A stretch of 32,273 nt of DNA from Betaproteobacteria bacterium (GTDB taxonomy: Bacteria > Pseudomonadota > Gammaproteobacteria > Burkholderiales > SG8-39). The stretch spans positions 1 to 32,273 of the forward strand of contig VBCP01000089.1 of NCBI GenBank assembly GCA_005888925.1. Reading direction: 5' to 3'. This document shows, one piece after another, positions 12,993 to 29,948 of the stretch; position 1 is the first letter of the stretch, and each line of letters opens with the position of its first letter. Below the pieces are notes generated by a model. It made no database searches. It was not told where the DNA came from and saw only the letters and a program-made list of their open reading frames with translations. Position numbers and translations under genes: made by a program.

Positions 12993-13474
12993 GCGCCCGA
13001 CCGACGATTGCCGATCTAGTGCGCTTCGTGAAGCATGAAGCGCGGCTCATCGATGAAAAGAGATTCGATGAGTGGTATGAGCTCTTCACCGACGATGCTT
13101 ATTACTGGGTGCCGGCGGCGCCAGGACAGACTGATCCGCTCTTGCACAACTCGCTTGCCTACGAGGACAAGCTGCTGCTCAGGCTGCGCATTGAGCGGAT
13201 GAAAAGCCCCCTCGCCTACTCGCAGCGGCCGGCGAGCCGCTGCCTGCATGTGCTGCAGGAACCGGATATCGAGAAGGCGGACCACGAGGGCGGCGAATAC
13301 CTCACACGCACGCCGTTCATCTATACCGAGACGCGCAACGACGACTCGCAGCGCTACGCCGCAACCGCCTGGCACACGCTGGTGTGGTCGCAGGATAGGC
13401 TGCGCATCCGCCTCAAGCGTGTCGACATCCTGAACTGCGACGCGATGCTGCCGTCGATCCAGCTATTCCTGTGA
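12989..13474 (+). CDS. Ring-hydroxylating dioxygenase beta subunit (NTF2-like)
   Basis: 161 aa. DEKRFDEWYELFTDDAYYWVP...RLRIERM pattern. ATGA overlap with the alpha subunit. Confidence 0.85.
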   Translation: MSARPTIADLVRFVKHEARLIDEKRFDEWYELFTDDAYYWVPAAPGQTDPLLHNSLAYEDKLLLRLRIERMKSPLAYSQRPASRCLHVLQEPDIEKADHEGGEYLTRTPFIYTETRNDDSQRYAATAWHTLVWSQDRLRIRLKRVDILNCDAMLPSIQLFL

Positions 13475-14190
13475 GCACCGCGGTCGTCACCGGCGGCAGC
13501 GCGGGCATCGGCCGGGCGATCGCGCGGCGGCTGCTCGACGCCGGCTACGAGGTGGTCTCGCTCGATGTGCAGCCATCAGGGCTCGCGCATACGAAACTGA
13601 AGCACGTGCATGTGGATCTGGCGGACGCCGAAGCGACGCGCCACGCCGCCGCCGAGGTCACGCGCGACCACGCGGTGACCACCGTGATCCACAACGCCGG
13701 CGTCATCCGCCCTGCCCTGCTGCCCGATCTCAAGCTGCCGGACTTCAATGCGCTGGTCAATGTCCACCTGGCTGCGGCCATCGTGCTGGTGCAGGCGGCG
13801 CTGCCGACGATGAAGAACGCCGGCTACGGGCGCGTGGTGCTGGTGTCCTCGCGCGCGGTGCTCGGCCTGCCGACGCGCACCTCCTACTCGGCGACCAAGG
13901 CCGGCATGCTCGGCATGGCGCGCACCTGGGCGCTCGAGCTCGCGCCGCACGGCGTGACGGTGAACGTGGTCGCCCCCGGGCCGATCCAGACGGCGAATTT
14001 CCACAGCATCATCCCCGAGGGCAGCCCCCAGGTCGAGCGCGTGATCGATACGATCCCGGTGAAGCGGCTAGGTCAGCCCGACGACGTCGCGCGCGCGGTC
14101 ATGTTCTTCGCCGAGCGCGACGCGGGCTTTGTCACCGGCCAGGTGCTCTACGTCTGCGGCGGCACGAGCGTCGGCACGCTGACCCTGTAG
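13471..14190 (+). CDS. Short-chain dehydrogenase/reductase
   Basis: VVTGGSAGIGRA, NAG, YSATKAG, GQVLYVCGG. GTGA overlap with the beta subunit. Confidence 0.88.
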   Translation: MSTAVVTGGSAGIGRAIARRLLDAGYEVVSLDVQPSGLAHTKLKHVHVDLADAEATRHAAAEVTRDHAVTTVIHNAGVIRPALLPDLKLPDFNALVNVHLAAAIVLVQAALPTMKNAGYGRVVLVSSRAVLGLPTRTSYSATKAGMLGMARTWALELAPHGVTVNVVAPGPIQTANFHSIIPEGSPQVERVIDTIPVKRLGQPDDVARAVMFFAERDAGFVTGQVLYVCGGTSVGTLTL

Positions 14191-15360
14191 CGAGTCCACC
14201 AGCCGCAGCTGGGCCGGCAGGCAGACGCGTTTCAAGTCGTAGCGCTGCACCACCGTTTCGCGCGCGCGGCTGCGCAGCGGCGCGAGCTCGGCCTGGTGCT
14301 CGAGCGCATAGGCCACGCGCTCGGCGATCGCCTCCGGCGAGAAGAAGTCGACCAGCAATCCACTCTCGCCGTCGCGCACCACCTCCTCGAGCGGCGGCGT
14401 GCGCGAGCCGACGATGAGGCAGCCTGACGACATCGCTTCGAGCAGCGACCAGGAGAGCACGAACGGATAGGTGAGGTAGACGTGCACCGCCGAGCGGCGC
14501 AGCAGCCCGAGATACTCCTGGTAGGGAATGCGGCCGAGGAACTCCACGCGCGAAAGGTCGATGCGCTCACCGAGCTCGGCGAGCAGGCGGCTCCGGTAGG
14601 TCTGGCCGGCGGGAAGCCGCGGCGAGTAGCTCACCTCGTCGCCGCCGACGATCGCGATGCGGGCCTTCGGCCGGCGCCGCTGGATTTCGGGAATCGCGCG
14701 CATGAAGCTGTGGAAGCCGCGGTACGGCTCGAGATTGCGCGCAACGTAGGTGATGAGCTCCGGCTCGGCGGCACCGGATGCGCGAACCAGGTCGGTGTCG
14801 ATGCCGTCGTGGATCACGGCGATGCGCGGCTTGTGCGCGGCGGGAAACTGGTGGTGCTGCCAGCGCGTCGGCGCCATGCCGAGATCGCAGGCGTCGAGCG
14901 CCATCAGGAGCGGCGCGTTCATCACCCGCAGGTGGAGCAGCTTTTCCGGCGTCGCCGGGAATTCGGCATCGAAACCGAGATCGCCGCCGCGCGAACGGTA
15001 GAAAAACTCGCAGTAGAGAATGATCTGCGCCTCGGGGAACACATCCTTCAGGAACAGAGCCTCGCCCCAGCCGATGTGGGCGAACACCACCTCGGGAACG
15101 AAGCCCGCGCGCCGCAGCTGCGCGCAGCCTGCGGCGACGCGCCGGCCGCGGTGGATTGCCCGCGAGACGCTGGCGTCCCATCCGCCGGAGACGGGTGAAG
15201 GGGCGTCGTAGCCGAGCAAGCGCACACCGGGCACACGCGCGGTACGCGCGAGGTTGGCCTTCTCGCCGACCGCGACCACATCGTGGCCCTGGCGGGCGTA
15301 ATGGGCAGCGAGATGCCGGTACTGGCCGGGGAAATTCTGATGGACGAAGAGAAAGCGCAT
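14068..15360 (-). CDS. GT4-family glycosyltransferase
   Basis: MRFLFVHQNFPGQYRHLA N-terminus; EX7E-type region LLEAMSSGCLIVGSRTPPLEEVVRDGESG. The start overlaps the MFP stop (TGATG). The 3' tail overlaps the convergent SDR by 123 nt. Confidence 0.8.
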   Translation of the reverse strand: MRFLFVHQNFPGQYRHLAAHYARQGHDVVAVGEKANLARTARVPGVRLLGYDAPSPVSGGWDASVSRAIHRGRRVAAGCAQLRRAGFVPEVVFAHIGWGEALFLKDVFPEAQIILYCEFFYRSRGGDLGFDAEFPATPEKLLHLRVMNAPLLMALDACDLGMAPTRWQHHQFPAAHKPRIAVIHDGIDTDLVRASGAAEPELITYVARNLEPYRGFHSFMRAIPEIQRRRPKARIAIVGGDEVSYSPRLPAGQTYRSRLLAELGERIDLSRVEFLGRIPYQEYLGLLRRSAVHVYLTYPFVLSWSLLEAMSSGCLIVGSRTPPLEEVVRDGESGLLVDFFSPEAIAERVAYALEHQAELAPLRSRARETVVQRYDLKRVCLPAQLRLVDSLQGQRADARAAADVEHLAGDKARVALGEEHDRARDVVGLT

Positions 15361-16640
15361 CAGACCGGCTCGCGCATCGCGCGGCGCAGGTAGGCGGTAA
15401 CCGGCGCGAGCAGGTAATCGAAGGCGGTGCGGCTGTCGGTGCGGATGAACACCTCCGCGGGCATGCCGGCCTGCATCTTCAGATCGCCCAGCGAACCGGG
15501 AGCAACCTCGATCTGGGCGACGTAATACGGCGCGTTCTTGTTCTCGGAATCCATCAGCCGATCGCCGGACACATAGCTCACGCGCCCGACGACCAGCGGC
15601 GTGGTGCGCTGCTTGTACGCGGTCAGGCGCACGTCGGCGGGCGTGCCCTTCGCGACGTGGTTGATGTCTTCGGGCCGGATGCGCGCTTCCAGGATCAGGG
15701 TCTTTTCCGCCGGCACGATCTCCATCAGCACGTCGCGCGGACCGACCACCGCGCCCGGCGTGAAGACCCGCAGGCCGACCACCTCACCCGCGTTCGGCGC
15801 GAGCACCTGCTGGCGCGCGGCGGCATCGCGCGACGGGCGCAGGCGTTCTTCCAGATCGAAGATGTGCGCGGTGGTGTCCTTCAGCTCGTCCACCGCGTTC
15901 TGCTTGTAGCTGTTCCGCGCGGTGATGATGCGAAGCTCGAGCTCGCTCGCCTTCTGGCGGCTGCGCGCCAGCTCGGCGCGATGCTCGCCGTGCTTGACCT
16001 CGTATTCGGCTACCGCGCGTTGCAGGGTCAGGACCCGGATCTTCTGCACGTAGTTCTGGCGCAGCAGCTCCTCGTTCGCCGTCAACTCTTCCTTCTGCAG
16101 CGCGATGGCGCGCTCCTCGGCGGCGAGCTGCGCCGCCAGGGCCGCCGCTTCAGCCTGTGTCTCGCCGATCTGCACGCGCAAGGCCGCCACCTGGCTATCG
16201 ACGGAGGACCGGCGCGACTGGAAGAGAGCGCGCTCGCGCTCGAGAATCTCCGCGACGCGCGGCTCGCGCTCACGCCGCCCGATGTCGGCGGGAAAACCGG
16301 GCTTAGGCGCAAAGCTGGCCTCCGCCCCCAAGCGCGCCTCCTTTGCGCGCTCAGCGATAAGTTGGATCGAGAGCAGATCCAGCGTGGAATCCACTTTCAC
16401 GTCCTCGAGCACGACCAGCGTCTGGCCCTGCTTCACCGTGTCGCCGTCGCGCACCCGGATCTCGCGCACGATGCCGCCTTCCTGGTGCTGCACCACCTTG
16501 CGGTTGAGATCGACCTTGACGAACGCGGGAGCGACGATCGCGCCCGAGAGCGGCGCGAGAATCGTCCAGCCGCCAAGGCCGATCATTCCGGCTGCGATGA
16601 TCAGCAATCCTGCGCAAACCAGGCGCTTGAGCTCGCTCAT
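15360..16640 (-). CDS. HlyD-family type I secretion periplasmic adaptor (MFP)
   Basis: N-terminal TM segment, long coiled-coil middle, C-terminal GMPAEVFI motif. ATGA overlap with the ABC gene. Confidence 0.88.
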   Translation of the reverse strand: MSELKRLVCAGLLIIAAGMIGLGGWTILAPLSGAIVAPAFVKVDLNRKVVQHQEGGIVREIRVRDGDTVKQGQTLVVLEDVKVDSTLDLLSIQLIAERAKEARLGAEASFAPKPGFPADIGRREREPRVAEILERERALFQSRRSSVDSQVAALRVQIGETQAEAAALAAQLAAEERAIALQKEELTANEELLRQNYVQKIRVLTLQRAVAEYEVKHGEHRAELARSRQKASELELRIITARNSYKQNAVDELKDTTAHIFDLEERLRPSRDAAARQQVLAPNAGEVVGLRVFTPGAVVGPRDVLMEIVPAEKTLILEARIRPEDINHVAKGTPADVRLTAYKQRTTPLVVGRVSYVSGDRLMDSENKNAPYYVAQIEVAPGSLGDLKMQAGMPAEVFIRTDSRTAFDYLLAPVTAYLRRAMREPV

Positions 16641-18295
16641 GCGGCACGCCTCACCACGCGCGAGAGGATCTCGCTGCGCGGGCCGAAGGCTTCGACCGCG
16701 CCTTCCCGCAGCACCAGCACCTTGTCGACACCGCCGAGCAGCGAGGGACGGTGGGCGACGATGATCACGGTCACTGCCTCCGCCTTGAGGCCATGGAGCG
16801 TGGCGAGCAGCGCCTGCTCGCCGTCGTGGTCGAGGTTCGCGTTCGGCTCGTCGAGCACGATGAGGCGCGGCGTGCCGTAAAGCGCGCGCGCGAGCCCGAT
16901 GCGCTGGCGCTGCCCGGGCGAAAGCGCGCTCGCGCCTTCGCCCAGCTCGGTGTCGTAGCCCTGCGGCAGGCGCAGGATCAGCTCGTGCACGTGCGCGCGT
17001 TGCGCAGCGCGCACCACCTCGGCGTCATCGGGCTGGTCGAGACGCGCGATGTTCCGCGCGATGGTGCCCGCGAAAAGCTCGACGTCCTGCGGCAGATAAC
17101 CGAGGTGCGGTCCGAGGCTCTCCCGCGGCCACATCGAGACATCGGCGCCGTCGAGGCGCACCGCGCCGGCGCTCGGGCGCCACACGCCGATCAGCAGCCG
17201 CGCGAGGGTCGACTTGCCCGACGCGCTCGGCCCGATGATGCCGAGCGATTCGCCGGGAGCGAGCGAGAACGAGGCGCCGCGGATGATCGGGCGCTGCACG
17301 CCGCGGACGCCGAATACGAGGTTCTCCACGGCCAGGCGGCCTTCCGGCGCCGGCAGCGCAGTGTGCGGCTCCGCGGTTGCGGGCGCGGCAAAAAGCTGGC
17401 TCAGGCGCCGCCAGGCGCCGCGCGCTTCGACCAGCGCGCGCCAGCCCGCTATGAGCTGCTCCACCGGCGCGAGCGCCCGGCCGAGCAGGATGGTGGCGGC
17501 AATCATCACGCCCGCCGTGACCTGCTGGTCGATGACGATGTAGGCGCCAAGCGCGAGCATTGCGGACTGGATGAATTGGCGTGCGAACTTGGTGAGACCC
17601 GAGATCGCGGCGCCGGAGCGCGTGGCCCGCGTCTGCTCGACGAGCGCCACCTCGTTGAGCTCGACCCACCGCCGAGCGACGGCGGGCAGCATGCCAAGCG
17701 CACCAACCACCTCGGCATTGCGCAGGCTGGTATCGATGAAGCGCGCGGCGCGCCGGCCTTCGGCTTGCGAACGCTCGAGGGGCTTGCGCGTCATGCGCTC
17801 GTTGACGAAGGCAAGCGTGAGCATGACGAGCGCGCCGGCGAGCGCCATGGCGCCCATCAAGGGATGGAACAGCGTGATCACGAGCAGGAACACCGGCAGC
17901 CAAGGCGCGTCGAACAGGGCGAGGATCCCGCTGCCGCTGAAGAACCTGCGCAGGCAATGCACATCGCGCAGCGCGCTGGCGTGCTCGCGGCTGCCGAGCC
18001 GCGCCGCCTCGCCCAGCAGTCCGTCGAGCACCTTCGGCCCGAGCCTGCGGTCGAGCGCAGTGCCAAGCGCAGCCAGCAGGTACGCGCGCACTATGTCCAG
18101 CGCCGCCATGCTCACGAGCGCCATCGCCACCGCCACGCTGAGGACGAGCAGCGTCTCGTCGCTGCGGCTCGTCAGCACGCGGTCGAACACCTGCAGCATA
18201 TAGAGCGGCGGCGCGAGCAGCAGCAGGTTCATCGCCAGGCTGAAGAGCCCGGCAAAGACGAGATACGGCCGCAGCCCTGCGAGGATCTTCTGCAC
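16637..18295 (-). CDS. Type I secretion system permease/ATPase (PrtD/AprD type, no C39 peptidase domain)
   Basis: LYMLQVFDRVL N-terminal motif, Walker A GPSASGKST, signature LSPGQRQR, Walker B LIVLDEP. GTG start. Confidence 0.9.
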   Translation of the reverse strand: MQKILAGLRPYLVFAGLFSLAMNLLLLAPPLYMLQVFDRVLTSRSDETLLVLSVAVAMALVSMAALDIVRAYLLAALGTALDRRLGPKVLDGLLGEAARLGSREHASALRDVHCLRRFFSGSGILALFDAPWLPVFLLVITLFHPLMGAMALAGALVMLTLAFVNERMTRKPLERSQAEGRRAARFIDTSLRNAEVVGALGMLPAVARRWVELNEVALVEQTRATRSGAAISGLTKFARQFIQSAMLALGAYIVIDQQVTAGVMIAATILLGRALAPVEQLIAGWRALVEARGAWRRLSQLFAAPATAEPHTALPAPEGRLAVENLVFGVRGVQRPIIRGASFSLAPGESLGIIGPSASGKSTLARLLIGVWRPSAGAVRLDGADVSMWPRESLGPHLGYLPQDVELFAGTIARNIARLDQPDDAEVVRAAQRAHVHELILRLPQGYDTELGEGASALSPGQRQRIGLARALYGTPRLIVLDEPNANLDHDGEQALLATLHGLKAEAVTVIIVAHRPSLLGGVDKVLVLREGAVEAFGPRSEILSRVVRRAA

Positions 18296-18380
18296 AGCGG
18301 CACTTTTTCAGAACCCACGTGCCACTGCCATGCCGGCGGCATGGCCGATCGGCCTATGTCACCGATGCGCGACAGCCGAG

Positions 18381-19172
18381 CTAGTCGATGCGCAACTCCA
18401 CGTCGCCCAGCCTATCGACCGAGAACTTCACGAGGTCGCCGGCCTGGACGGTCTTGGTGGTGATGATGCTGCCGGTGATGACGACGTCGCGGAACACCAG
18501 GCCGCGGCCGTGCGCCGCGAGATGGTTGGCGATCCAGGCGAGCGCGTCGAGCGGATGGCCCATGGCGGCCGCGCCCAGGCCCTCGCCCACCACTTTGCCG
18601 TTGATCGTGGCAATGCCACGCACGGCGGCAAGGTCGAGAGCGCTCCAATTCGTCACCGGTACGCCCAGGACGGCACCCTCGTTCCAGCCGTTGTCCGCGA
18701 TCAGCTCGAGCGGATGCCTTGCCAGCTGGCCATAGTCGGCATCGCGGTCGTCGGCGATCTCGATCGCCGGCATCACGGCCTGCACGAAGGGGGCGACGCT
18801 CGAGCGCGTGTAAGGCGCGTCCGCCACCGGCAGGTCGGCGGCCATCTGCACCGCGATCTCGAATTCGACGATCAGGTGGACGTAATCGATTGCCCGCAGC
18901 TTGGCCGGCGTGCGATGCAGCGTCGACTCGAGCATCACGCCGGCCTGCGGCTCGTCGACGCCGACGAAGCGCTGCATCTCCTTCGAGGAGAGCGCGATCT
19001 TGTAGCCGGCGACGGCGCCCAGCTGCTCCGCGCGAAGGGCGACGAAGTAGTCCTGGATGGCGTAGGCCTCCTCGGCCGTGCGCGGCGCGAGCTCCGCCGG
19101 CAGCGGCGTGAAAGGCTCGCGGCGCTGATGCGCTTCGAACAGGCGCTGCGCGGCGAGTTTGGGTTTCCGCAT
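18381..19172 (-). CDS. 2-keto-4-pentenoate hydratase family protein (MhpD/HpcG-like, FAH superfamily)
   Basis: EEAYAIQD, AGYKIALSS, EFEIAV, ITGS pattern. Confidence 0.8.
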   Translation of the reverse strand: MRKPKLAAQRLFEAHQRREPFTPLPAELAPRTAEEAYAIQDYFVALRAEQLGAVAGYKIALSSKEMQRFVGVDEPQAGVMLESTLHRTPAKLRAIDYVHLIVEFEIAVQMAADLPVADAPYTRSSVAPFVQAVMPAIEIADDRDADYGQLARHPLELIADNGWNEGAVLGVPVTNWSALDLAAVRGIATINGKVVGEGLGAAAMGHPLDALAWIANHLAAHGRGLVFRDVVITGSIITTKTVQAGDLVKFSVDRLGDVELRID

Positions 19173-19181
19173 GAGGGACCC

Positions 19182-19187
19182 TAGAAT
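19182..19187 (+). promoter_or_regulatory. -10-like hexamer TAGAAT, 5 nt upstream of the STAS gene ATG
   Basis: It is the only AT-rich element in the 20-nt divergent spacer. No Shine-Dalgarno is possible. Confidence 0.3.
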
Positions 19188-19192
19188 ATCTC

Positions 19193-19567
19193 ATGCCTCT
19201 CTCCCACCGGAGCTACGGCGCGGCGCGCGTGGTGTCGCCGCGCGGCCGGCTCGATCACGACAATTGCGAGGGCTTCCAGCGCGACCTCGCGGCGCAGCTC
19301 GACGCGTGCACGCAGGAGGGCGCGGCGCTGGTGCTCGATATGTCGGGCATCGAATACGTCTCGAGCGCGGGCCTGCGCTGCCTGATGATCGCCGCGAAGC
19401 AGGCCGCGACGCGCGCGAGCCGCATCGTGGTCGCCTCGCCGCAGCCGGTGGTCGCCGAAATCCTGCAGATCAGCCGCTTCAATCTAGTGCTGCCGGTGTT
19501 CGGCACGACGCGCGAGGCGCTCGCTTCGATCTCGCCGCAGGCGGCGCAGGCCTTCGACAAGGGCTGA
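19193..19567 (+). CDS. STAS-domain anti-sigma-factor antagonist (RsbV/SpoIIAA-like)
   Basis: 124 aa. LVLDMSGIEYVSSAGLRCL with the conserved Ser position. Confidence 0.85.
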   Translation: MPLSHRSYGAARVVSPRGRLDHDNCEGFQRDLAAQLDACTQEGAALVLDMSGIEYVSSAGLRCLMIAAKQAATRASRIVVASPQPVVAEILQISRFNLVLPVFGTTREALASISPQAAQAFDKG

Positions 19568-19574
19568 GCGCGCC

Positions 19575-20484
19575 ATGCGCGTACGCTTCTGGGGTACGCG
19601 CGGCTCGATCCCGGTCGCCGGCCTCGGGACGGCGCTTCGAGTCCTACGGCGAGGCATATGCCTTCGCCCAGGAGGCGCTGCCCTTCTCGGTGAGCCACAG
19701 CTTCGGCGGCCACACCTCGTGCGTCGAATTCGAGACCGGCCACGCCGAGTACTTCGTCTGCGACATGGGCAGCGGCGCGCGCGCCTTCGGCGAGCACATC
19801 CTCGCGCGCCAGGGCGAGCGTCCCGCGACGGTGAATGTCTTCATGTCGCACGTGCACTGGGACCACATCATGGGCTTCCCGTTTTTCGGCCCGGCCTACG
19901 TCCCGGGGACGCGGATCCGCATCCATGGCTGCCACGACATCCTCGAGCACGCGTTTCGCCTGCAGCAGTCGCCGCCCTGCTTCCCGGTGTCGTTCGAGCA
20001 GCTCGGCGCGACCATCGAGTTCGTCCGGCTGGCCGCGGGCAAGCCGTTCCATGTTTCCGGCCTGAGCGTGACGCCGCAGCTGCAGCGCCACTCCGGCGAC
20101 TCGTACGGCTACCGCTTCGAGATCGGCGGCCGCAGCATCGTCTACACCACCGATTCGGAGCACAAGCTCGAGGATCGCGTGCAGACCGCGGCCATCGTCG
20201 CCTTCTTCCGCGATGCGGATCTCGTCATCTTCGACGCCATGTACTCCCTGGCGGAGGCGATCTCGGTGAAGGAGGACTGGGGCCATTCCAGCAACGTGGT
20301 GGGGGTCGAGCTCTGCCAGATGGCGGGCGCAAAGCACCTGGTGCTCTTCCACCACGAGCCCGCCAACAGCGACGCGGCGATCGAGGGCGCGCTGCGCGAC
20401 GCCCGCCGCCTGGAGGAGCTGACGCGCGGCGCGCAACCGCTGCGCGTCTCCGCCGCGCACGACGGGCTGGAGATCGATCTCTGA
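19575..20484 (+). pseudogene. MBL-fold metallo-hydrolase; frame-disrupted near the 5' end
   Basis: MRVRFWGTRGSIPVA is in one frame. The remainder (RRFESYGEAY...GGHTSCVEF...SHVHWDHIMG...HHEP) is in another. The change lies at about 19615-19630. Confidence 0.75.
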
Positions 20485-20488
20485 GTTT

Positions 20489-20493
20489 GAGGG
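20489..20493 (+). promoter_or_regulatory. Shine-Dalgarno-like GAGGG, 7 nt upstream of in-frame CTG 20501
   Basis: Read directly from the sequence. There is no in-frame ATG/GTG/TTG between the upstream in-frame region and Met 20630, yet the CHASE2-like N-terminal TM segment is encoded upstream of 20630. Confidence 0.4.
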
Positions 20494-20500
20494 TTTTCGT

Positions 20501-22415
20501 CTGAGGTTCGGCTCGGGCCCGCGCGCGGTCGGCACCGGTCTCGCCGCGGCGCTGTGCCTGCTCGTCGGCCTGGAACCGCCGCCGCTCGGCGCCCTGCGCG
20601 ACACGGTCTTCGACGGCTACCAGAAGCTGATGCCGCGCAGCCGCGCCACGGCCCCGGCAGTGATCGTCGCCATCGACGAGCGCGCGCTCGACGCGCGCGG
20701 CCAGTGGCCCTGGCCGCGCAACGTGCTCGCGCAGCTGGTCGACGCGATCAACGCGGCGCGACCGGCCGCCCTGGGCATCGATCTGCTGTTCGTCGAGCCC
20801 GATCGCTCTTCGGCAGGCGCCGATGCCGTGCTCGCGCAGGCCATCCAGCGCGGGAAGGTGGTGATGGGGATCGCCGGCCTGGAATACCGCGACCGGCGCT
20901 ATCCGTTCCCGCCGCAGGCGGCGCCGACGCGCGTTGCGACCAAGCGCGAGCTGCCGCTGCGCCGCTTCGACGGGCACCTGCAGAGCCGCGCGGAGATCAA
21001 CCGCGCCGCGGACGGCCGGGGCCTCATCAGCTCCGACGCGAAGGAGATCGTGCGGCGCGTGCCGCTCGCTGCGCGCATCGGCCAGGTGATCGTGCCCGCG
21101 CTCTCCATCGAGATGATCCGCGTCGCGGTCGGCGCGCCGCTCCTGCGGCTCACGGATCAGGGCGGCGAGCGCGTGACACTGGGGATCGGCGATCTCAGCG
21201 TGCCGCTGCAGTCCGACGGCTCGCTGCACGTCTACTTCGGCCACCACGATGCCGAGCGCTTCGTCTCGGCCGAGGACGTGCTCAGCGGGCCTGGGCTTGC
21301 TCGACTACCAGATTACGGCGCTCGGCGAGCGCATCCCCGGCGTCGAGGTGCACGCGCAGATCCTCGAGCAGATCTTCGATGGCGAGTATCTGCGCCGCCC
21401 GACCGGCGCGACCTGGATCGAGGCGGCGCTGCTTGCTGCGGCGGGTTTGGTTCTGGTCATCTGTGTCCCCATCGTCCGACCGTGGGTCTCGGCAAGCCTG
21501 CTCGCGGCATTGCTCGGGGCGCTGGCGGCGACCGGGCTCGTCGCGTTCCGCGCGGGATCCCTGTTGAACGTCGCGGCGCCGGCCCTCGGCGCGGCGTTCC
21601 TGTTCGCGACGCTCCTCGCCTCGACCCTCGCCGAGGCCGACCGCCAGCGGCGCCTGCTGCGCGAGGCGCAGGCCCGGGTGGCGGGCGAGCTCGAAGCGGC
21701 GCGCCGCATCCAGATGGGCCTGCTGCCCGCGCCGCGCGAGCTCTTCGCCGCCGAGCGGCGCTTCTCGCTCGAGGCCCTCCTCGAGCCGGCGCGCACCGTC
21801 GGCGGCGACTTCTACGACTGCTTCATGCTCGACCCGCACCACCTCTTCTTCCTCGTCGGCGACGTCTCGGGCAAAGGCCTGGCGGCGAGCCTTTTCATGG
21901 CCCTGTCGAAGTCGCTGCTGAAGAGCCTGGCGCTGCGCGGCGCGCGCGACCCGGCGGAAATCTTCAACCAGGCGAACGCCGAGATCAGCCGCGACAACCC
22001 CGAGTCGCTCTTCGTCACCGCCTTCGCCGGCGTGCTCGACGCGCGCAACGGCCGCCTCGCCTTCTGCAGCGCCGGGCACGAACCGCCGGTGGCGTGCCAG
22101 CCCGGCGGCGCGCCGCAGCGGCTGATGCAGTCGGGCGGGCCGCCGCTCTGCGTGATCCGCGACTTCGCCTATTCCGCGAGCGAGCTCGAGCTCGAGCCGG
22201 GCGGCTGGCTCTGCGTCGTCACCGACGGCGTGACGGAGGCGATGAACGAACGCGGCGAGCTGTATGGCGCCGCACGACTGCTTGAGACGGTACGAGGTCT
22301 AGCAGAACCGGGCGCGATCGCCGCAGCGGTGCGCGACGATGTCAGGCGCTTCGCCGGGAAGGCGGAGCAGTCCGATGACCTGACGCTGCTTTGCGTGCGC
22401 CGGAACGGCGCCTAG
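20501..22415 (+). pseudogene. CHASE2 sensor - TM region - SpoIIE/PP2C phosphatase fusion (RsbU-like); frame-disrupted, with a putative CTG start
   Basis: CHASE2-like N-terminal part (VIVAIDERALDARGQWPWPR...GIDLLF...) runs to about 21290. A shifted frame then carries GLLDYQITALGERIPGVEVHAQ, three TM helices and the PP2C motifs (GGDFYD, GDVSGKG, TDGVTEA, DDLTLL). A GAGGG Shine-Dalgarno lies 7 nt before CTG 20501. Confidence 0.75.
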
Positions 22416-22996
22416 CGGACGTTGATCTCGACGCGGCGGTTGCGCGGCTCGTCGACGTCGTCGGCTGTCGGAATCAGGAGCTCGCGCTCGCCGCGCCCGG
22501 CGGTGCGGATGCGCCCGGCCGGGATGCCGATATCGACGAGAAAGCCCTTCACCGTCTCGGCGCGCTGCGCCGAGAGCCGATCGTTGCCCGCGGCATCGCC
22601 CACGGTGTCGGTATGGCCGATCACCAGCACGTCGGGCAGCGGGCGGTCCTTGAGCGCGGCGAGCACGTTCTGCAGCTCGGCCTTCGACTCCGGGGTGAGC
22701 TCGTCCGTGCCGGTGATGAAGTGCAGCATGAATGCCGTGGGCCGCGCCGGCAGCGCCTGCAGCGTGGCGCCAAAGTTTTCGCGCACCTCGGCATCGGAGA
22801 GGCGCGCGACTTCGGCCTCGCCGGTGCGGCTCGCGGCGTACGGCTGGTCGAGGACCTGCCGGGTCTCGCCGCGCTGCACGACTACCGTGCCTACTTTGCC
22901 GTCGGGGCCGGGCAGCACCACCACCGTTTCGTTCGTGGCCGGACGCATGAGGAACAGCGCCAGGCCGATCGCGGCCGCGACGACCAGGACTCCCAA
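22412..22996 (-). CDS. OmpA-C-like (peptidoglycan-binding) domain protein with an N-terminal TM anchor
   Basis: VIGHTDTVGDAAGNDRLSAQRAETV...NRRVEI. TTG start directly after the fecR-like stop. Confidence 0.82.
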   Translation of the reverse strand: MGVLVVAAAIGLALFLMRPATNETVVVLPGPDGKVGTVVVQRGETRQVLDQPYAASRTGEAEVARLSDAEVRENFGATLQALPARPTAFMLHFITGTDELTPESKAELQNVLAALKDRPLPDVLVIGHTDTVGDAAGNDRLSAQRAETVKGFLVDIGIPAGRIRTAGRGERELLIPTADDVDEPRNRRVEINVR

Positions 22997-23422
22997 TCAG
23001 TCGACCTTCACGATGAATTCCGTGCCGCGAACGCCCATGATCGCCGACGGCGTACGCACATGCATGGCATCAGGCGACTGCTTGACGATCTTGCCGGAGA
23101 TCACGGCAAGCGTGCCCTTGCTGAGCGTGCTGTCGAACTTGCCGGCGTGCGTGGTCGAGTCGAACACGTACTGATCGATGGCGAGGACGCTGTTCGGGCC
23201 TACAGACAGGAGGCTGTTGTCGGTGAAGGTCACGCCGACGGTGCCATCGGCCCCGGTCACCAGCTTGTCGGCCTGCTGCACCGGCATGCCCACGCGCACC
23301 GGCAGGCGCTCCGCGCCGCGCTCGAGATGCGCGGCGCCGCGCGCGACTTTCACCTCGCCAACGTCGGCGGCCCACGCGGTCGCCGTGAAGCCGAGCAGGA
23401 CTGCAGCCATCGTGAAGCGCAT
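22997..23422 (-). CDS. FecR-domain periplasmic protein
   Basis: Signal peptide MRFTMAAVLLGFTATAWA. FecR-like core (VKVARGAAHLERG...PVRVGMPVQQADKLVTGADGTVGVTFTDNSLLSVGPNS..., VRGTEF). GGGAG Shine-Dalgarno upstream. Confidence 0.8.
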   Translation of the reverse strand: MRFTMAAVLLGFTATAWAADVGEVKVARGAAHLERGAERLPVRVGMPVQQADKLVTGADGTVGVTFTDNSLLSVGPNSVLAIDQYVFDSTTHAGKFDSTLSKGTLAVISGKIVKQSPDAMHVRTPSAIMGVRGTEFIVKVD

Positions 23423-23455
23423 ATAGGACTCCCAAGGGGTTGTTTTTTCGGATTC

Positions 23456-23461
23456 TATAAT
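23456..23461 (+). promoter_or_regulatory. -10 consensus TATAAT, 12 nt upstream of ATG 23474 of the RsbW-like gene
   Basis: Perfect consensus hexamer in the fecR/rsbW-like divergent spacer. No clear -35 or Shine-Dalgarno. Confidence 0.35.
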
Positions 23462-23473
23462 GCGCGCAACCCC

Positions 23474-23830
23474 ATGGCCGACCGCGTGAAAAATGCCCGT
23501 TCAGCAATGTTTCTTGCACGCCTCGCCGAGCTGCGCAGCATCGGCTCGTTCCTGGAGGGCTTTTGCGCCGACAGCCAGCTCGAGCGCGAGCGCTGCCTGC
23601 GCCTCAACCTGGTGCTCGAGGAACTGTTCATCAATACCGTGAACCACGGTCACCGCGGCGATTGCGACGCGCCCATCTGGATCCTGCTCGACGCGCAGCC
23701 GCAGGCCGTGCACCTGACCTACGAGGACACCGCTCCCCCGTTCGTGCTGCTTACGCGCGAACTCGCGGCCGCGCGCGACTACGCCTATCTCTTCGGCCGC
23801 AACCGCATCCGGCTCTCGCTGCTTCGGTAA
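23474..23830 (+). CDS. Small GHKL-type anti-sigma regulatory factor / Ser kinase-like protein (RsbW/SpoIIAB-like), apparently lacking the G2 (GGxG) box
   Basis: N-box LVLEELFINTVNHG, G1-like YEDTAPPF, C-terminal YAYLFGRNRIRLSL. Start ATG 23474 or 23507. Confidence 0.65.
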   Translation: MADRVKNARSAMFLARLAELRSIGSFLEGFCADSQLERERCLRLNLVLEELFINTVNHGHRGDCDAPIWILLDAQPQAVHLTYEDTAPPFVLLTRELAAARDYAYLFGRNRIRLSLLR

Positions 23831-23840
23831 ACCTGAGGCG

Positions 23841-24383
<543 letters not shown>

Positions 24384-24435
24384 CTAGCCGAGCGGGTCGT
24401 CAAAGTCGCACGAAGCACCGTAGGTTTGATCTCCG

Positions 24436-26361
24436 ATGTGCGGCATCGCCGGCTTCTTCGCGCTCACGCCCCGTACGCTCGCGCCGCGCGGCGTGCTCGA
24501 GCGCATGGTCGAGGCGGTGCGCCATCGCGGGCCGGATGACGCCGGCGTCTATCTCGACCGCCGCGCCGGCCTCGGGCATCGGCGGCTCTCGATCATCGAT
24601 CTCGCCGGCGGCAAGCAGCCGCTTGCCACCGCCGATGAAAAGCTGTGGGTCACGTTCAACGGCGAAATCTTCAACTACGTCGAGCTGACCAAGGAGCTGA
24701 CCGCGCGCGGCCGCCAGTTCCGCACGCGCAGCGACACCGAGACCATCCTGCACGCCTACGCCGAGTATGGACCCGCGTGCGTCGAATCTTTCAACGGCGA
24801 CTTCGCCTACGCCATCTGGGACCGCGAGCGCCAGCGCCTCGTCATGGCGCGCGACCGCATGGGCGTGCGGCCGCTTTACTACACCGTTCACGACGGCGTG
24901 CTGGTATTCGCCTCCGAGGTGAAATCGCTGTTCCTTTATCCGGGGCTGCGCGCCGAGCTCGACCCGCTGGGCCTCGATCAGTGCTTCACGTTCTGGTCGC
25001 CGCTCGCCCCGCGCACCGCCTTCAAGGGCGTGCACGAGCTGCCGCCGGGACACCAGCTCATCGCGGAGCACGGCACGCTGAAAGTGCAGCCGTACTGGAA
25101 GCTGCGCTTCCCGGCGCGCGGCGAGCGCTCGCGCGCGGATGCAGATGCCATTGGCGAGCAAGTGGAAGCGCTGCTCGCCGACGCGACGCGCATCCGCATG
25201 CGGGCCGACGTGCCCGTCGGCGCCTATCTGAGCGGCGGCTTCGACTCCTCGGTGACCACGGCGCTCGCCAAGGGGTACAACGAAGGCCTGCGCACTTTCT
25301 CGCTCGAGTTTGAAAGCCCCGAGCTCGACGAATCGGCCTATCAACGCACCCTTGTGGAAGCGTTGGGCACGGACCACTCCTCACTGCGCTGCAAGGGCGG
25401 CGACATCGCCGCGGCCTTCGAGCAGGTCATCCGGCACACCGAGCGGCCCGTGCTGCGCGCGGCGCCGGCGGCGCTCTACCTGCTCGCGCGCCAGGTGCGC
25501 GACCATGGCTTCAAGGTGGTGCTCACCGGCGAAGGCGCGGACGAAGTCTTCGGCGGCTACGACATCTTCAAGGAAGCGCTGGTGCGCCGCTTCTGGGCGC
25601 GCCAGCCGAACTCGAAATGGCGCCCGCTGCTCCTGCGCCGGCTCTACCCGTACCTCGGCGGCCTGCAATCGCAGCCGGCGCGCTATCTGGAAGCCTTCTT
25701 CCGCACCGGCCTCGCCGCGGGCGACGATCCGCTGTTTTCGCACCTGCCGCGCTTCGCGCTCACGCGGCGCATCAGCCAGTTCTACTCGGGCGATCTGCGC
25801 CGCGCGATCAATGGCTACGACCCGCTCGAAGACCTGCGTTCCACCCTGCCGCCGGAATTCGGCTCCTGGCACCCGCTGTCGCGCGCGCAGTACCTCGAGA
25901 CCGGCTGTCTGCTGCCCGGCTACATCCTTTCGTCGCAGGGCGACCGCGTCGCCATGGCCCACGCGGTCGAAGGCCGCTTCCCGTTCCTCGACCACCGCGT
26001 GGTCGAGCTGGGCGCCGCGCTGCCCCCGGCGATGAAGGTCAAGGGGCTGCGCGAGAAGTACGTGCTGCGCCGCGCGCTCGGGCGGCATCTGCCGCGCGCG
26101 ATCGTCGAGCGCCCCAAGCAGCCGTATCGCGCGCCCGACAGCGAAAGCTTCCTGCATGCCGGCGCGCCCGGGTACGTGGATGCGCTGCTCGCCCCCGAGG
26201 CGATCGGCCGCGCGGGCTATTTCGAGCCGCGCGCCGTGCGCCGCCTGGTCGACAAGTGCCGTAATCCGCTCGGACCGGTCTCGGCCGGCGACAACATGGC
26301 GTTCATCGGTATCCTGTCGACGCAGCTGCTGCATTCATGCTACGTGCAAGCGTTGATCTGA
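24436..26361 (+). CDS. Asparagine synthase-family glutamine amidotransferase (AsnB-like; resembles exopolysaccharide/exosortase-locus amidotransferases)
   Basis: MCGIAGFF Ntn nucleophile, PP-loop YLSGGFDSS. 641 aa. Confidence 0.88.
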   Translation: MCGIAGFFALTPRTLAPRGVLERMVEAVRHRGPDDAGVYLDRRAGLGHRRLSIIDLAGGKQPLATADEKLWVTFNGEIFNYVELTKELTARGRQFRTRSDTETILHAYAEYGPACVESFNGDFAYAIWDRERQRLVMARDRMGVRPLYYTVHDGVLVFASEVKSLFLYPGLRAELDPLGLDQCFTFWSPLAPRTAFKGVHELPPGHQLIAEHGTLKVQPYWKLRFPARGERSRADADAIGEQVEALLADATRIRMRADVPVGAYLSGGFDSSVTTALAKGYNEGLRTFSLEFESPELDESAYQRTLVEALGTDHSSLRCKGGDIAAAFEQVIRHTERPVLRAAPAALYLLARQVRDHGFKVVLTGEGADEVFGGYDIFKEALVRRFWARQPNSKWRPLLLRRLYPYLGGLQSQPARYLEAFFRTGLAAGDDPLFSHLPRFALTRRISQFYSGDLRRAINGYDPLEDLRSTLPPEFGSWHPLSRAQYLETGCLLPGYILSSQGDRVAMAHAVEGRFPFLDHRVVELGAALPPAMKVKGLREKYVLRRALGRHLPRAIVERPKQPYRAPDSESFLHAGAPGYVDALLAPEAIGRAGYFEPRAVRRLVDKCRNPLGPVSAGDNMAFIGILSTQLLHSCYVQALI

Positions 26362-26449
26362 AAGCGGCTGATCTGAAGGAAGCTGCCCGATTCGAATCCC
26401 GTGTCACGAAGCTCGGCTATCGTCTCGCTTGCCCGGAAACTCCCAGCCC

Positions 26450-26725
26450 ATGAAACACGATATCAGCCTCGCTGTGCGCCGCTTCATCGGCGAGAATTTC
26501 ATGTTCCGCGACGACGGCGACGCCATCACGCATGATGCCTCGCTGCTCGACGCCGGCATCATCGACTCCACCGGCGTGCTCGAGCTGGTGTGCTTTCTCG
26601 AGAGCAGCTTCGGCATCGAAGTGCACGACGAGGAGATGCTGCCGGAGAACCTCGACTCGATCCGCGCGATCAGCGCTTACGTCAGCCGCAAGCTCGAATC
26701 CCGCAAGATCGAACTCGTTGCTTGA
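26450..26725 (+). CDS. Acyl/aminoacyl carrier protein
   Basis: 91 aa. Phosphopantetheine Ser in LLDAGIIDSTGVLELV. Start ATG 26450 preferred over 26429. Confidence 0.8.
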   Translation: MKHDISLAVRRFIGENFMFRDDGDAITHDASLLDAGIIDSTGVLELVCFLESSFGIEVHDEEMLPENLDSIRAISAYVSRKLESRKIELVA

Positions 26726-28209
26726 CGGTGCGAGTCGAATCCTTCCTGCTCGAAAGCGCCCGGCGCTTTCCAGCTAAGACCGCGCTGGTCGCCGGGCCGG
26801 CGCGCCTGAGCTATCAGGAGCTCGCTGCCCGCGCGGCTTCGTTCGCCGCCGAGTTGCGACGCCAGGGCGTGGCGCGCAGCGATCGCGTCGTCATCTTCCT
26901 GCACAACTCGCCCGAGGCGGTGATCGCCGTCTTCGGCACGCTGCTCGCGGGCGGCGTGTTCAGCGTGGTCAACCCCGGCACCAAGGCCGACAAGCTCGCC
27001 TACATCCTCAACCATTGCACGGCAAAGGCGCTGGTCACCGAGCCTCGCCTCGCTGAGGTCGCCAGCTCGGCGCGCGAGAGCGCCCCGGCAGTCGCGACGA
27101 CGCTGGTCACACCGTTCAATTTCGAGCAAGCGCCAGCGCCCGCACAGCCGGGGATCGATCTCGACCTGGCGATGATCGTCTACACCTCTGGCTCAACGGG
27201 ATTTCCGAAGGGCGTGACGATGACGCACGCCAACATCGCGGCGGCCGCGACTTCGATCACCACCTATCTCGACAGCCGTGCCGAGGACATCGTCCTGTCG
27301 GTGCTGCCGCTCGCCTTCGATTACGGCCTGTACCAGGCGCTGATGTGCGCCAAGGTCGGCGCCACGCTGGTGCTGGAGAAATCGTTCACCTACCCGGCGG
27401 TGGTGCTGGAGAAGCTGAAAAGCGAGCGCGTCACCGGCTTTCCGCTCGTGCCGACGCTCGCCGCGATGCTCTTGCAGATGAAGCAGCTCGCGCCCGGGAT
27501 GTTTCCCGACCTGCGATATCTGACGAATACGGCGGCGGCGCTGCCGCGCGCGCACATCGAGCGGCTGCGCGAGCTCTTCCCGCAGGCGAAGCTCTACTCG
27601 ATGTACGGCCTCACCGAATGCAAGCGCTGCACCTATCTGCCGCCCGAGCAGCTCGCGCTGCGGCCCGAGTCGGTCGGCATCGCGATTCCCGGCACCGAGG
27701 CCTACGTGGTCGACGAGCTGGGCCAGCGCGTCGCGCCAGGCACCGTGGGCGAGCTCGTGATCCGCGGTGCGCACGTGATGCAAGGCTACTGGGCCGACGA
27801 GGAAGCGACCGCGCGCGTGCTGCGGCCGGGGCCCTACCCGTGGGAGAAGGTGCTGCACACCGGCGATCTATTCCGCAGCGACGACCAAGGCTACCTGTAC
27901 TTCGTCGGCCGCAAGGACGACATCATCAAGACGCGCGGCGAGAAGGTGAGCCCGAAAGAGGTCGAGAACGTGCTCTACGAGCTTCCCGGGATCCGCGAAG
28001 CGGCGGTCATCGGCGTGCCCGATCCGATCTTAGGCGAGGCGGTGAAGGCGATCGTCGCCGCCGATGACGGCGTCACCGAGCGCGACATCATCCGCCACTG
28101 CGCGGCGCGCCTCGAGGACTTCATGGTGCCCTCGTCGGTCGAGTTCCGCGGCCAGCTGCCCAAGAGCGAGAACGGCAAGATCGCGCGCAAGGAGCTCGTC
28201 GCCGCATGA
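26722..28209 (+). CDS. AMP-forming acyl-CoA/carrier-protein ligase (ANL adenylating enzyme)
   Basis: IVYTSGSTGFPKGV, YGLTE, TGDL, GRKDDIIKTRGEKV, PKSENGKIARKEL. TTG 26722 (TTGA overlap with the carrier protein gene) or GTG 26728. Confidence 0.88.
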   Translation: MTVRVESFLLESARRFPAKTALVAGPARLSYQELAARAASFAAELRRQGVARSDRVVIFLHNSPEAVIAVFGTLLAGGVFSVVNPGTKADKLAYILNHCTAKALVTEPRLAEVASSARESAPAVATTLVTPFNFEQAPAPAQPGIDLDLAMIVYTSGSTGFPKGVTMTHANIAAAATSITTYLDSRAEDIVLSVLPLAFDYGLYQALMCAKVGATLVLEKSFTYPAVVLEKLKSERVTGFPLVPTLAAMLLQMKQLAPGMFPDLRYLTNTAAALPRAHIERLRELFPQAKLYSMYGLTECKRCTYLPPEQLALRPESVGIAIPGTEAYVVDELGQRVAPGTVGELVIRGAHVMQGYWADEEATARVLRPGPYPWEKVLHTGDLFRSDDQGYLYFVGRKDDIIKTRGEKVSPKEVENVLYELPGIREAAVIGVPDPILGEAVKAIVAADDGVTERDIIRHCAARLEDFMVPSSVEFRGQLPKSENGKIARKELVAA

Positions 28210-29174
28210 ACGCGCGCTTCGATCCCCTTTCACTGAATTTAAACGCAGCCGTCGAGGTCGAGCGCATCGCCACGACGCTGCGCAGCCAGGTGCTCAAGCA
28301 GCTGCGCCGCAAGGGCGTGGTGCTCGGGCTTTCGGGCGGCGTCGACTCGAGCGTGGTGGCCGCGCTCTGCGTGCGCGCCTTCGGCGCAGACCGCGTGCTC
28401 GGCATCTACATGCCGGAGCAGGACTCCGAGCCGGATAGCTTGCGGCTGGGGCAAGCCGTCGCCGAGTGGCTCGGCATCGAGACGGTGCTCGAGGACATCA
28501 CGCCGATACTGGTCGGTGCCGGCTGCTATCGGCGGCGCGACGAGTACATCCGGCGCCTCGTCCCGGAATACGGCCCGGGCTGGCGCTCGAAGGTGGTATT
28601 GCGCAAGGCCAAGGGCACGGCGGGATACAACGTGTTTCACCTCGTGGTGCGCGGCCCGCACGGCGAGGAAAAGGAAGCGCGCATGCCGCCCGAGGTCTAC
28701 CTCGGCATCGTCGCCACCACCAACATGAAGCAGCGCACGCGCAAGCAGCTCGAGTACTACCACGCCGATCGCCTGCAGTACGCGGTCGCGGGCACCCCCA
28801 ACCGCCTCGAGTACGACCAGGGCTTCTTCGTCAAGAACGGCGACGGCGCGGCCGACGTCAAGCCGATCGCCCACCTCTACAAGTCGCAGGTCTACCAGCT
28901 CGCCGCCGAGCTCGGCGTCCCCGAGGAGATCCGCAGCCGGCCGCCGACCACCGACACCTATTCGCTCGCGCAGACGCAGGAAGAGTTCTTTTTTGGCATC
29001 TCGCTGCGCACGCTCGACGTGTGCATGTACGCGCTCGATCAGGGCGTGCCGGCCGAGACCGTCGCGCCCGCGGTGGGCTTGAGCACCGAGCAGGTGCTGG
29101 ACGTATTCCGCGACATCGCCGGGCGGCGCCGCAGCACGCGCTACCAGCACGAGCAGCCGCTGCTCGTCGCGTAG
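28206..29174 (+). CDS. NAD+ synthetase (NadE)-family N-type ATP pyrophosphatase
   Basis: PP-loop LGLSGGVDSSV; GTPNRLEYDQGFFVKNGDGAADVKPIAHLYKSQV. ATGA overlap with the ligase. Confidence 0.82.
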   Translation: MNARFDPLSLNLNAAVEVERIATTLRSQVLKQLRRKGVVLGLSGGVDSSVVAALCVRAFGADRVLGIYMPEQDSEPDSLRLGQAVAEWLGIETVLEDITPILVGAGCYRRRDEYIRRLVPEYGPGWRSKVVLRKAKGTAGYNVFHLVVRGPHGEEKEARMPPEVYLGIVATTNMKQRTRKQLEYYHADRLQYAVAGTPNRLEYDQGFFVKNGDGAADVKPIAHLYKSQVYQLAAELGVPEEIRSRPPTTDTYSLAQTQEEFFFGISLRTLDVCMYALDQGVPAETVAPAVGLSTEQVLDVFRDIAGRRRSTRYQHEQPLLVA

Positions 29175-29181
29175 GTCGCCT

Positions 29182-29799
29182 GTGCGTCAAGCGACTAGGC
29201 ACAAGGCGAGCACCGTCTGGGTCCAGGTGGGCGACGGCGCCCGCCTGGAGCTGCATCACACGCCCTGGTGGCGGCACATCTACCGCGATTTCCGGCGCTA
29301 CCGCGTCACGGCCGACGCGGCGCTGCGCACCATCTTTCTCACCCAGGGATTCTGGGCGAGCTGCATCTATCGCCTGTCGCGCGCCGGGGTGAAGCACGCG
29401 GGCTGGATCTCACGGCCGCTCGCGGCGCTCGCGCAGAAGCTGGTGGAGATCGTCACCGGCATCAGCGTCCCCGCGCAATGCGAGATCGGCGACGGTCTCT
29501 ACATCGGCCATTACGGCTCGATCATCCTCTCCCCCGAGGCGCGCATCGGGCATAACTGCAGCCTCGCGCAGAACGTCACCATCGGCGTGGCGGGGGCGAT
29601 CGGCGACGACGTGGTGGTCTGCGCCGGCTCGGTCGTGAGCCGCTCGGTGCCGGCGCGCGCCGTGGTCATGGGCAACCCGGCCCGCGTGGTGTCCTACGAC
29701 GGCAGCTTCGACTACGTGTTCTACGACGGCATGGACGTCGACCCCGCCCGGCGCGAATCGCTCGAGAAGGTCAGGTCCTTGAACGTCGGCCCGGCGTAG
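29182..29799 (+). CDS. Serine O-acetyltransferase-like hexapeptide-repeat acyltransferase
   Basis: FLTQGFWASCIYRLSR N-domain; LbH repeats IGDGLYIGHYGSIIL, IGHNCSLAQNVTIG, IGDDVVVCAGSVV; GNPARVV. GTG start 7 nt after the nadE-like stop. Confidence 0.75.
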   Translation: MRQATRHKASTVWVQVGDGARLELHHTPWWRHIYRDFRRYRVTADAALRTIFLTQGFWASCIYRLSRAGVKHAGWISRPLAALAQKLVEIVTGISVPAQCEIGDGLYIGHYGSIILSPEARIGHNCSLAQNVTIGVAGAIGDDVVVCAGSVVSRSVPARAVVMGNPARVVSYDGSFDYVFYDGMDVDPARRESLEKVRSLNVGPA

Positions 29800-29926: not shown

Positions 29927-29948
29927 GGGGTGGCGGACTCTAACCCAA

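Follow-up and report, generated by a model that had tools for sequence, protein, structure and literature searches.

A conserved six-gene cassette, disrupted in a betaproteobacterial contig, as a candidate partner switch that couples envelope sensing to a metallo-β-lactamase-fold hydrolase

We analysed a 32,273-nucleotide (nt) stretch of DNA with a GC content of ~68% (positions 1 to 32,273 of contig VBCP01000089.1, GenBank assembly GCA_005888925.1, from a Betaproteobacteria bacterium), hereafter the window. Between 19193 and 23830 it carries one copy of a conserved six-gene signalling cassette, built around a STAS-domain protein and a metallo-β-lactamase (MBL)-fold hydrolase. Lengths are in amino acids (aa), and TM denotes transmembrane. 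The genes are as follows:

19193-19567, + strand: STAS-domain antagonist, 124 aa, intact (Pfam STAS, E = 4e-15)
19575-20484, + strand: MBL-fold (Lactamase_B_2) hydrolase gene, disrupted; 318 aa in relatives (Pfam, E = 4e-17)
20501-22415, + strand: CHASE2-3TM-PP2C(SpoIIE) sensor phosphatase gene, disrupted (Pfam CHASE2, E = 2e-31; SpoIIE, E = 4e-49)
22412-22996, - strand: OmpA_C-like peptidoglycan-binding protein, 194 aa (Pfam OmpA, E = 8e-20)
22997-23422, - strand: FecR-domain periplasmic protein, 141 aa, intact (Pfam FecR, E = 4e-12)
23474-23830, + strand: RsbW/SpoIIAB-type GHKL protein (HATPase_c_2), 118 aa, with an internal deletion (Pfam, E = 2e-10)

The STAS, MBL and phosphatase genes run in one direction, the ompA-like and fecR-like genes converge on them, and the gene for the RsbW-like kinase diverges. 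An earlier, sequence-only reading of this DNA had assigned these domains without database searches, and Pfam profiles upheld all six assignments (STAS, Lactamase_B_2, CHASE2 with SpoIIE, OmpA, FecR and HATPase_c_2). The order that it gave, a STAS gene followed by an MBL hydrolase with an HVHWDH motif, was likewise borne out, the motif lying in the frame that ends at 20484, as was its observation that the convergent stop codons of the phosphatase and OmpA-like genes share CTAG at 22412-22415. The genes for STAS, MBL and phosphatase lie close together on one strand: only 7 nt separate STAS from MBL in the window, and in a related locus (L019) this gap shrinks to 1 nt and an overlap follows.

The cassette recurs widely. 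A one-genome-per-species scan with an alignment of the MBL protein returned at least 568 relatives, of which the best 80 were fetched and 66 had enough flanking sequence. In 65 of these 66 species-level genomes the six genes are all present, with order and orientation unchanged, and the exception (L069) lacks only a detectable OmpA match. The same six-gene cassette is also present in a Verrucomicrobiae metagenome-assembled genome (L105). Its genomic surroundings are of at least three kinds, and neither the type I secretion set that precedes it in the window nor the genes downstream of it there (23841-29174) are kept beside it in other genomes. The MBL hydrolase is the best-conserved member, with a mean identity of 73% (range 61 to 96%), against means of 55 to 65% for the STAS, OmpA-like, FecR and kinase proteins, scored against the same lineage as the MBL; the identity of the phosphatase was scored with the L019 query and is not directly comparable to the other five. 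The cluster picked out from a single sequence is thus syntenic in its relatives and, judged by these comparisons, is a real, conserved module in many soil bacteria.

The copy in the window is itself broken. The sequence-only reading treated it as whole and overlooked that three of its six genes are disrupted; when domains are read from raw sequence, deletions that disrupt the genes of a given copy can go unnoticed. We compared the window with soil-metagenome contigs that are 98 to 100% identical to it (L001-L018), found through exact look-ups of the STAS and FecR proteins, in which the MBL (318 aa), CHASE2-SpoIIE (612 to 615 aa) and HATPase_c_2 (134 aa) genes are intact. In the MBL gene, 48 nt are lost between GGTCGC repeats at 19618/19619 and one C is inserted. 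This takes out LTAADIRDKLARALVA, by alignment to the near-identical contigs, and shifts the frame, leaving the N-terminus MRVRFWGTRGSIPV (ATG at 19575) out of frame with the catalytic body. In the phosphatase gene, 53 nt are lost between CGG repeats within CHASE2 at 21288/21289, again with a frameshift, and CHASE2 profile positions 4-180 fall in the frame 20486-21328 and positions 199-255, together with SpoIIE, in the frame 21249-22415. The 'one long gene' of the earlier reading therefore stands as regards its domains, three TM helices and helical linker, and fails as a single frame. The kinase gene has a 48-nt in-frame deletion at 23743/23744 that removes NPFAYRVEMGKVGGLG, the ATP lid and G2 box (GGLG), so that the window's protein covers HATPase_c_2 profile positions 1-85 of 127, against 1-125 in relatives. 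The divergent GHKL protein that had been read as short does match HATPase_c_2; its shortness reflects the 48 nt missing relative to its kin (118 aa in the window, 134 aa in near-identical relatives and 143 to 157 aa in more distant ones).

All three lesion sites are intact in every near-identical contig (at least six samples per site), and the locus L024 is colinear with window positions 12833-28387, broken only by the three cassette lesions. The remaining genes look sound: identical copies of the STAS and FecR proteins occur on 16 and 11 contigs, respectively, and the OmpA-like gene is uninterrupted, with contigs 98 to 99.6% identical and free of indels (some relatives call a protein of 189 aa). 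As given, the window's copy could not work, with a deletion of ~50 nt in each of the MBL, phosphatase and kinase genes. A fourth deletion lies outside the cassette, ~6 kb away at 29891, where ~88 to 92 nt are missing relative to L110 (212-299). It falls between the open reading frames (ORFs) 29721-29939(-) and 29999-30655(-), where it cuts off a tRNA-Leu(UAA) gene, whose 3' half is gone, and deprives a small minus-strand ORF of its ATG. ARAGORN found tRNA-Leu(UAA) in L110-L112 and none in the window, where tRNA-Cys (31273-31346) and tRNA-Gly (31400-31475) are intact. Because this fourth deletion hits a distant tRNA-Leu gene, deletions of 50 to 90 nt look like a property of the record and not of the cassette alone.

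Two explanations of the deletions compete. We give an even chance to the four deletions (48 to 92 nt) being artefacts of assembly or processing, such as uncovered stretches dropped from the consensus, in which case the organism's own cassette would be intact and functional. The similar deletion in tRNA-Leu(UAA), a gene that is intact in identical relatives, speaks for this, as do the intact near-identical contigs, the absence of the junction k-mers of deletions 1 and 3 from JGI metagenome contigs, and the unusual ratio of four large deletions to ~0.2% substitutions. On the other side, the window contains no runs of N, De Bruijn assemblers make no junctions without read support, and the junctions show 1 to 6 nt of microhomology and one untemplated base, like real end-joining or slippage. 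Loss of tRNA-Leu(UAA) may moreover be tolerable in a genome of 68% GC, by analogy with bldA.

Somewhat less than even is how we rate the converse, that the deletions are genuine and that the strain has inactivated a decaying or counter-selected module, leaving three pseudogenes. Three of the four deletions in the ~19 kb compared lie in the 4.7-kb cassette (p ~0.05 by our estimate), each of these takes out a conserved structural element, and deleted segments 1 and 2 have a 13-mer in common (p ~1e-3). Genuine decay fits poorly with a fourth deletion unconnected with the cassette, with STAS and FecR proteins identical to those recorded for relatives and an uninterrupted OmpA-like gene, and with junctions that recur in no other sample (k-mers of deletions 1 and 3, JGI metagenome contigs).

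The shared 13-mer, CGCGACAAGCTGG, occurs in the segments deleted at 19618 and 21288 (L003 663-710 and 2380-2432), where it encodes RDKL in both proteins. It is absent from the window, and two random 50-mers of the cassette would share one by chance at ~1e-3. A motif common to all the deleted cassette segments was rejected, since segment 3 shares only 8- to 9-mers, a level of chance (22% of random pairs). Hairpin-mediated skipping was also rejected as a cause, since the three deleted cassette segments fold, as DNA, no more stably than shuffled sequences (z = -0.35, -0.77 and +1.0). The only near-identical contig that spans window position 10800 (L108 1-134) diverges completely to its left; we rejected a further deletion there, as L108 looks like a different, strain-specific neighbouring sequence at that point. 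Another near-identical strain contig (L007, Ga0066710_100114898) carries tandem STAS genes at 2196-2570 and 3066-3440. Its second STAS block is ~85% identical to window 18793-19619 and may have arisen by genuine duplication or by chimeric assembly from two strains.

Taken from the intact relatives, the proteins of the cassette have several features of a partner switch. The STAS motif LEYVSS(58)AGLRC places a serine at the position of the phospho-serines SpoIIAA S58 and RsbV S56. It is near-invariant across the related loci listed, and we regard Ser58 as a putative phosphorylation site. NCBIfam assigns the STAS protein to the anti-sigma factor antagonists (59 bits, above the cut-off). The kinase of the relatives has a conserved N-box (EELFxNTVxHGH), a YEDTAPPFNP motif and the G2 box GGLG, but its G1 box is atypical (DTAPP). 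The phosphatase consists of TM1, a periplasmic CHASE2 domain, three TM helices (~21414-21629), a helical linker and a cytoplasmic PP2C domain (~21834-22403), whose SpoIIE match spans profile positions 2-191 of 192 and lies downstream of the frameshift. CHASE2-SpoIIE products of the relatives measure 612 to 685 aa.

The start of the phosphatase gene is unusual. Gene callers choose the canonical ATG at 20630, which sits downstream of TM1 and so loses it. Upstream of TM1 there is no ATG, GTG or TTG in the window lineage or in several relatives. A conserved CTG (20501-20503 in the window; compared in L021, L023, L024-L028 and L034) is the likely start by sequence comparison. In L023 this CTG overlaps the MBL stop codon as CTGA, and in the window lineage a 20-nt insertion (a duplicated TCTGAG) puts GAGGG 7 nt upstream of the CTG. 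When the CHASE2-PP2C protein served as query, all matches were near cassette orthologues (at least 63% identity), and no distant contexts came to light. For the FecR protein we found a Sec signal peptide (AWA/ADVG), and signal peptides are conserved in its relatives. The OmpA-like protein has an N-terminal hydrophobic anchor, with a lipobox Cys in several relatives, and matches the YiaD/PA1041/Pal-like families of NCBIfam, each under its cut-off. An anti-phage defence system was considered and rejected: PADLOC gave no match except a generic MotB/ZorB similarity of the OmpA domain.

The MBL hydrolase belongs to a large family, with 6657 representative clusters at E ≤ 1e-3 and 838 at E ≤ 1e-30. 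Among 150 representatives, the catalytic, metal-binding residues H108, H110, D112, H113, H188, D209 and H275 (HxHxDH, H, D, H) are at least 95% conserved, as is a WGHSS motif specific to this family. A second motif peculiar to the family, FWGTRGS, lies in the N-terminal part and precedes a helix. By sequence there is no close solved structure, the only match being RNase Z (E = 3e-5). The structures nearest to a predicted model are the Bacillus anthracis ElaC homologue, B. subtilis YhfI, RNase Z, PhnP and yeast PDE1, and the best NCBIfam match is to a cyclic-nucleotide-degrading phosphodiesterase (NF041851, 51 bits against a cut-off of 400). Apyc1 gave only a weak precomputed match, and hmmscan at E ≤ 1 did not pick it up. 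Because of its nearest structures, its NCBIfam match and its conserved metal ligands, the MBL is predicted to be an active phosphodiesterase-type enzyme. Our best guess for its substrate is a nucleotide or cyclic-nucleotide phosphodiester.

STAS domains are fused to this hydrolase in 45 of the 150 best 50%-cluster representatives. The share by length is 27 of 27 proteins above 1000 aa, six of seven at 501 to 1000 aa and 11 of 16 at 346 to 500 aa. The architectures include STAS-MBL and MBL-STAS, that is, both orders, and MBL-STAS-Pkinase-AAA_16-TPR; the short fusions retain the SSAG serine motif. The giants among these proteins (700 to 1640 aa; 27 of the 150 best MBL representatives) combine MBL and STAS with a Hanks Ser/Thr kinase, AAA_16 (STAND) and TPR; examples are P0138, P0145, P0153, P0163, P0164, P0167 and P0189. 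On a deltaproteobacterial contig (L107), an MBL-STAS fusion is followed by a HATPase_c_2 gene and then by dCache-HAMP-SpoIIE, which is the same core under a different sensor, without FecR or OmpA genes. The fusions are independent evidence suggesting that MBL and STAS act together, and they favour direct control of the MBL by STAS over sequestration of the MBL by the kinase.

No sigma factor appears to be encoded beside the cassette. We ran phmmer with RpoE, SigB, SigF and FliA as seeds, validated by their finding one another, against the window and 84 related loci (8 to 10 kb; 7556 stop-to-stop ORFs in all) and obtained no sigma-70-family ORF at E ≤ 5. Nothing sigma-related was found by Pfam among the neighbouring genes of the window, nor any sigma-70 domain among the precomputed Pfam labels of related contexts. 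A sigma-54 gene 3 kb upstream of the cassette in L021 and L022 was set aside as coincidental: it is part of a conserved lptCAB-rpoN-hpf-ptsN-hprK-rapZ block that is absent from the other contexts. A scan of 18900-24000 gave no sigma-70 consensus promoter and is uninformative at 70% GC. The statement of the sequence-only reading that no sigma factor is encoded at the locus thus holds in the window and in 84 relatives, which sets the cassette apart from a plain RsbUVW-type locus. None of the findings that this reading had named as counter-evidence was obtained: profile searches upheld CHASE2 and SpoIIE, the neighbourhood is conserved in relatives, and no relative searched has an adjacent sigma-70-family ORF.

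We propose the following mechanism. The periplasmic CHASE2 domain of the phosphatase would read a cue from the envelope or cell wall, together with the secreted FecR-domain protein and the peptidoglycan-anchored OmpA-like protein, and the signal would pass through the three TM helices and the helical linker to set the activity of the cytoplasmic PP2C domain. The RsbW-like kinase would phosphorylate Ser58 of the STAS protein, and PP2C would take the phosphate off. The phospho-state of STAS would in turn control the MBL-fold enzyme, a phosphodiesterase type co-translated with it, probably through direct binding of the two proteins and with no sigma factor involved. From sequence we infer all of the interactions, the direction in which control runs, and both signal and substrate. 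On balance we favour this enzyme-controlling partner switch, in which the phosphodiesterase-type MBL would be the output and CHASE2/FecR/OmpA would supply the envelope input. Both ends of it had been suggested from the raw sequence. The MBL as candidate controlled output gains support from the STAS fusions and from its recurrence with an RsbW-like kinase and a differently sensing PP2C (L107), and an input from the periplasm or cell wall fits the documented pairing of CHASE2 with periplasmic FecR proteins (PMC5192318, PMC9239204).

Several observations weigh against this proposal. The window's own copy is defective, and the G1 box of the kinase is atypical even in relatives (DTAPP instead of DxGxG). 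The AlphaFold2 model of the MBL is of only moderate confidence (predicted local distance difference test score, 71; predicted template-modelling score, 0.78), and the suggested substrate draws on family matches that fall below threshold. Certain MBL homologues stand alone, their neighbourhoods lacking a STAS gene (L103, L104). The giants often have no Ser/Thr at the canonical STAS phospho-serine, and because that serine is so often replaced, STAS-MBL coupling need not rely on phosphorylation everywhere. A neighbourhood analysis is, finally, blind to an unlinked sigma factor or other target. This last point leaves room for an ordinary anti-sigma partner switch, in which the RsbW-like protein would sequester a sigma factor encoded at an unlinked site, the MBL being a co-transcribed accessory or passenger enzyme. 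STAS, PP2C and HATPase_c_2 do form the canonical triad, and by NCBIfam the STAS protein falls into the anti-sigma-factor-antagonist superfamily. We nevertheless consider this unlikely: the 85 sequences searched hold no sigma-70-family ORF within 8 to 10 kb, and the MBL does not look like a passenger because it exceeds the other cassette members in conservation, has a fused STAS domain in about one-third of representative clusters and travels with kinase and PP2C under another sensor (L107).

The MBL might instead be part of the switch, resetting or processing STAS (for instance as a second phospho-esterase or a nucleotide hydrolase that acts on STAS or its ligand), or making or destroying a small-molecule cue, with the true output elsewhere. 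Its place in a phosphodiesterase-type clade would suit such a role, and another phospho-esterase would be useful in the MBL-STAS-Pkinase giants, which have no PP2C. We judge this very unlikely, given that the cassette already has a PP2C with an intact catalytic domain and holds no other conserved candidate output gene; to our knowledge, MBL-fold phosphoprotein phosphatases are not an established class.

The favoured partner switch has precedents among systems that regulate enzymes, established for diguanylate cyclases in the pairs HsbA-HsbD, BgrV-BgrR and SiaC-SiaD (PMC8457831). Pseudomonas aeruginosa SiaABCD and HptB-HsbR-HsbA-HsbD and Sinorhizobium meliloti BgrSTUWV-BgrR likewise bring together a STAS or STAS-like protein, a serine kinase of GHKL type and a phosphatase of PP2C type (PMC8457831). 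In these systems the phospho-state of the STAS or STAS-like protein controls an adjacent enzyme, with no sigma factor in the locus, and by analogy the same design may apply to the cassette. Their output is a GGDEF diguanylate cyclase, whereas the cassette has no GGDEF domain and its candidate output is an MBL-fold hydrolase; its input, CHASE2 with FecR-like and OmpA-like partners, also differs from theirs. The NCBIfam SiaA profile is matched by the PP2C domain only (53 bits against a cut-off of 700). With RsbU/V/W, SpoIIE/AA/AB and BtrU/V/W the cassette has in common the triad, the phospho-serine position and the N and G2 boxes of the kinase. It differs from them in having no nearby sigma factor, in the MBL gene between antagonist and phosphatase, and in a phosphatase that is a membrane CHASE2 sensor.

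The input side has parallels of its own. The Burkholderia 'BiofilmReg' operon encodes a response regulator, a LysM-FecR protein, a CHASE2 histidine kinase and a DUF4136 protein (PMC5192318), and a Campylobacterota cluster encodes a CHASE2 adenylate cyclase, a phosphodiesterase, a FecR protein and a TPR protein (PMC9239204). Common to both and to the cassette is a CHASE2 sensor (TM1, periplasmic domain, three TMs) adjoining a secreted FecR-domain protein, and in the cassette this pair is conserved in 65 of the 66 genomes. The peptidoglycan-binding module is a fused LysM in BiofilmReg and a separate OmpA_C protein in the cassette. The transmitter is a histidine kinase or an adenylate cyclase in the BiofilmReg and Campylobacterota clusters, whereas in the cassette it is a PP2C feeding a STAS/kinase switch. 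As for the proposed output, the MBL has the Lactamase_B_2 fold and metal ligands in common with ElaC/RNase Z, PhnP, YhfI, class II phosphodiesterases and Apyc1-type enzymes. It falls far below every family cut-off and has its own FWGTRGS and WGHSS motifs, and we found no report of a STAS association for any of these enzymes. The literature that we searched contained nothing that combines partner switching with CHASE2, or STAS with MBL.

A broader reading is possible, which we offer tentatively: STAS-coupled MBL hydrolases may form a widespread class of phospho-switch-controlled phosphodiesterases that possibly degrade a nucleotide second messenger and are driven by interchangeable sensors (CHASE2/FecR/OmpA here, dCache elsewhere and Hanks kinase-STAND-TPR in the giants). 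Sigma factors are missing from many proteobacterial partner-switching modules, and little is known of what these modules control. The cassette and the recurrent STAS-MBL fusions nominate a specific, testable family of output enzymes, with more than 6,000 representative clusters (E ≤ 1e-3), and the cassette connects this MBL output with the CHASE2/FecR module for envelope sensing, itself poorly understood. If our proposal is correct, a hydrolase would join the known outputs of STAS phospho-switches, and it might be an enzyme of second-messenger breakdown. Partner switching would then gain a second enzymatic output class beside diguanylate cyclases, one that links envelope state to nucleotide signalling, and there would be an experimental handle on what CHASE2 sensors detect.

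The contexts in which the cassette is found differ in their flanking genes, as follows:

Window: hydratase and type I secretion system on one side, 3-hydroxyanthranilate dioxygenase on the other
L019: hydratase and uvrC
L021: rpoN-hprK-rapZ block and mutY

In the window, the type I secretion set upstream (14068-18295, - strand) comprises a TolC-like ORF (not Pfam-scanned), HlyD and an ABC transporter. Downstream, 23841-29174 encodes the 3-hydroxyanthranilate dioxygenase, an asparagine synthase (AsnB), an acyl carrier protein, an AMP-dependent ligase (acyl-CoA ligase) and an NAD-synthase-like gene.

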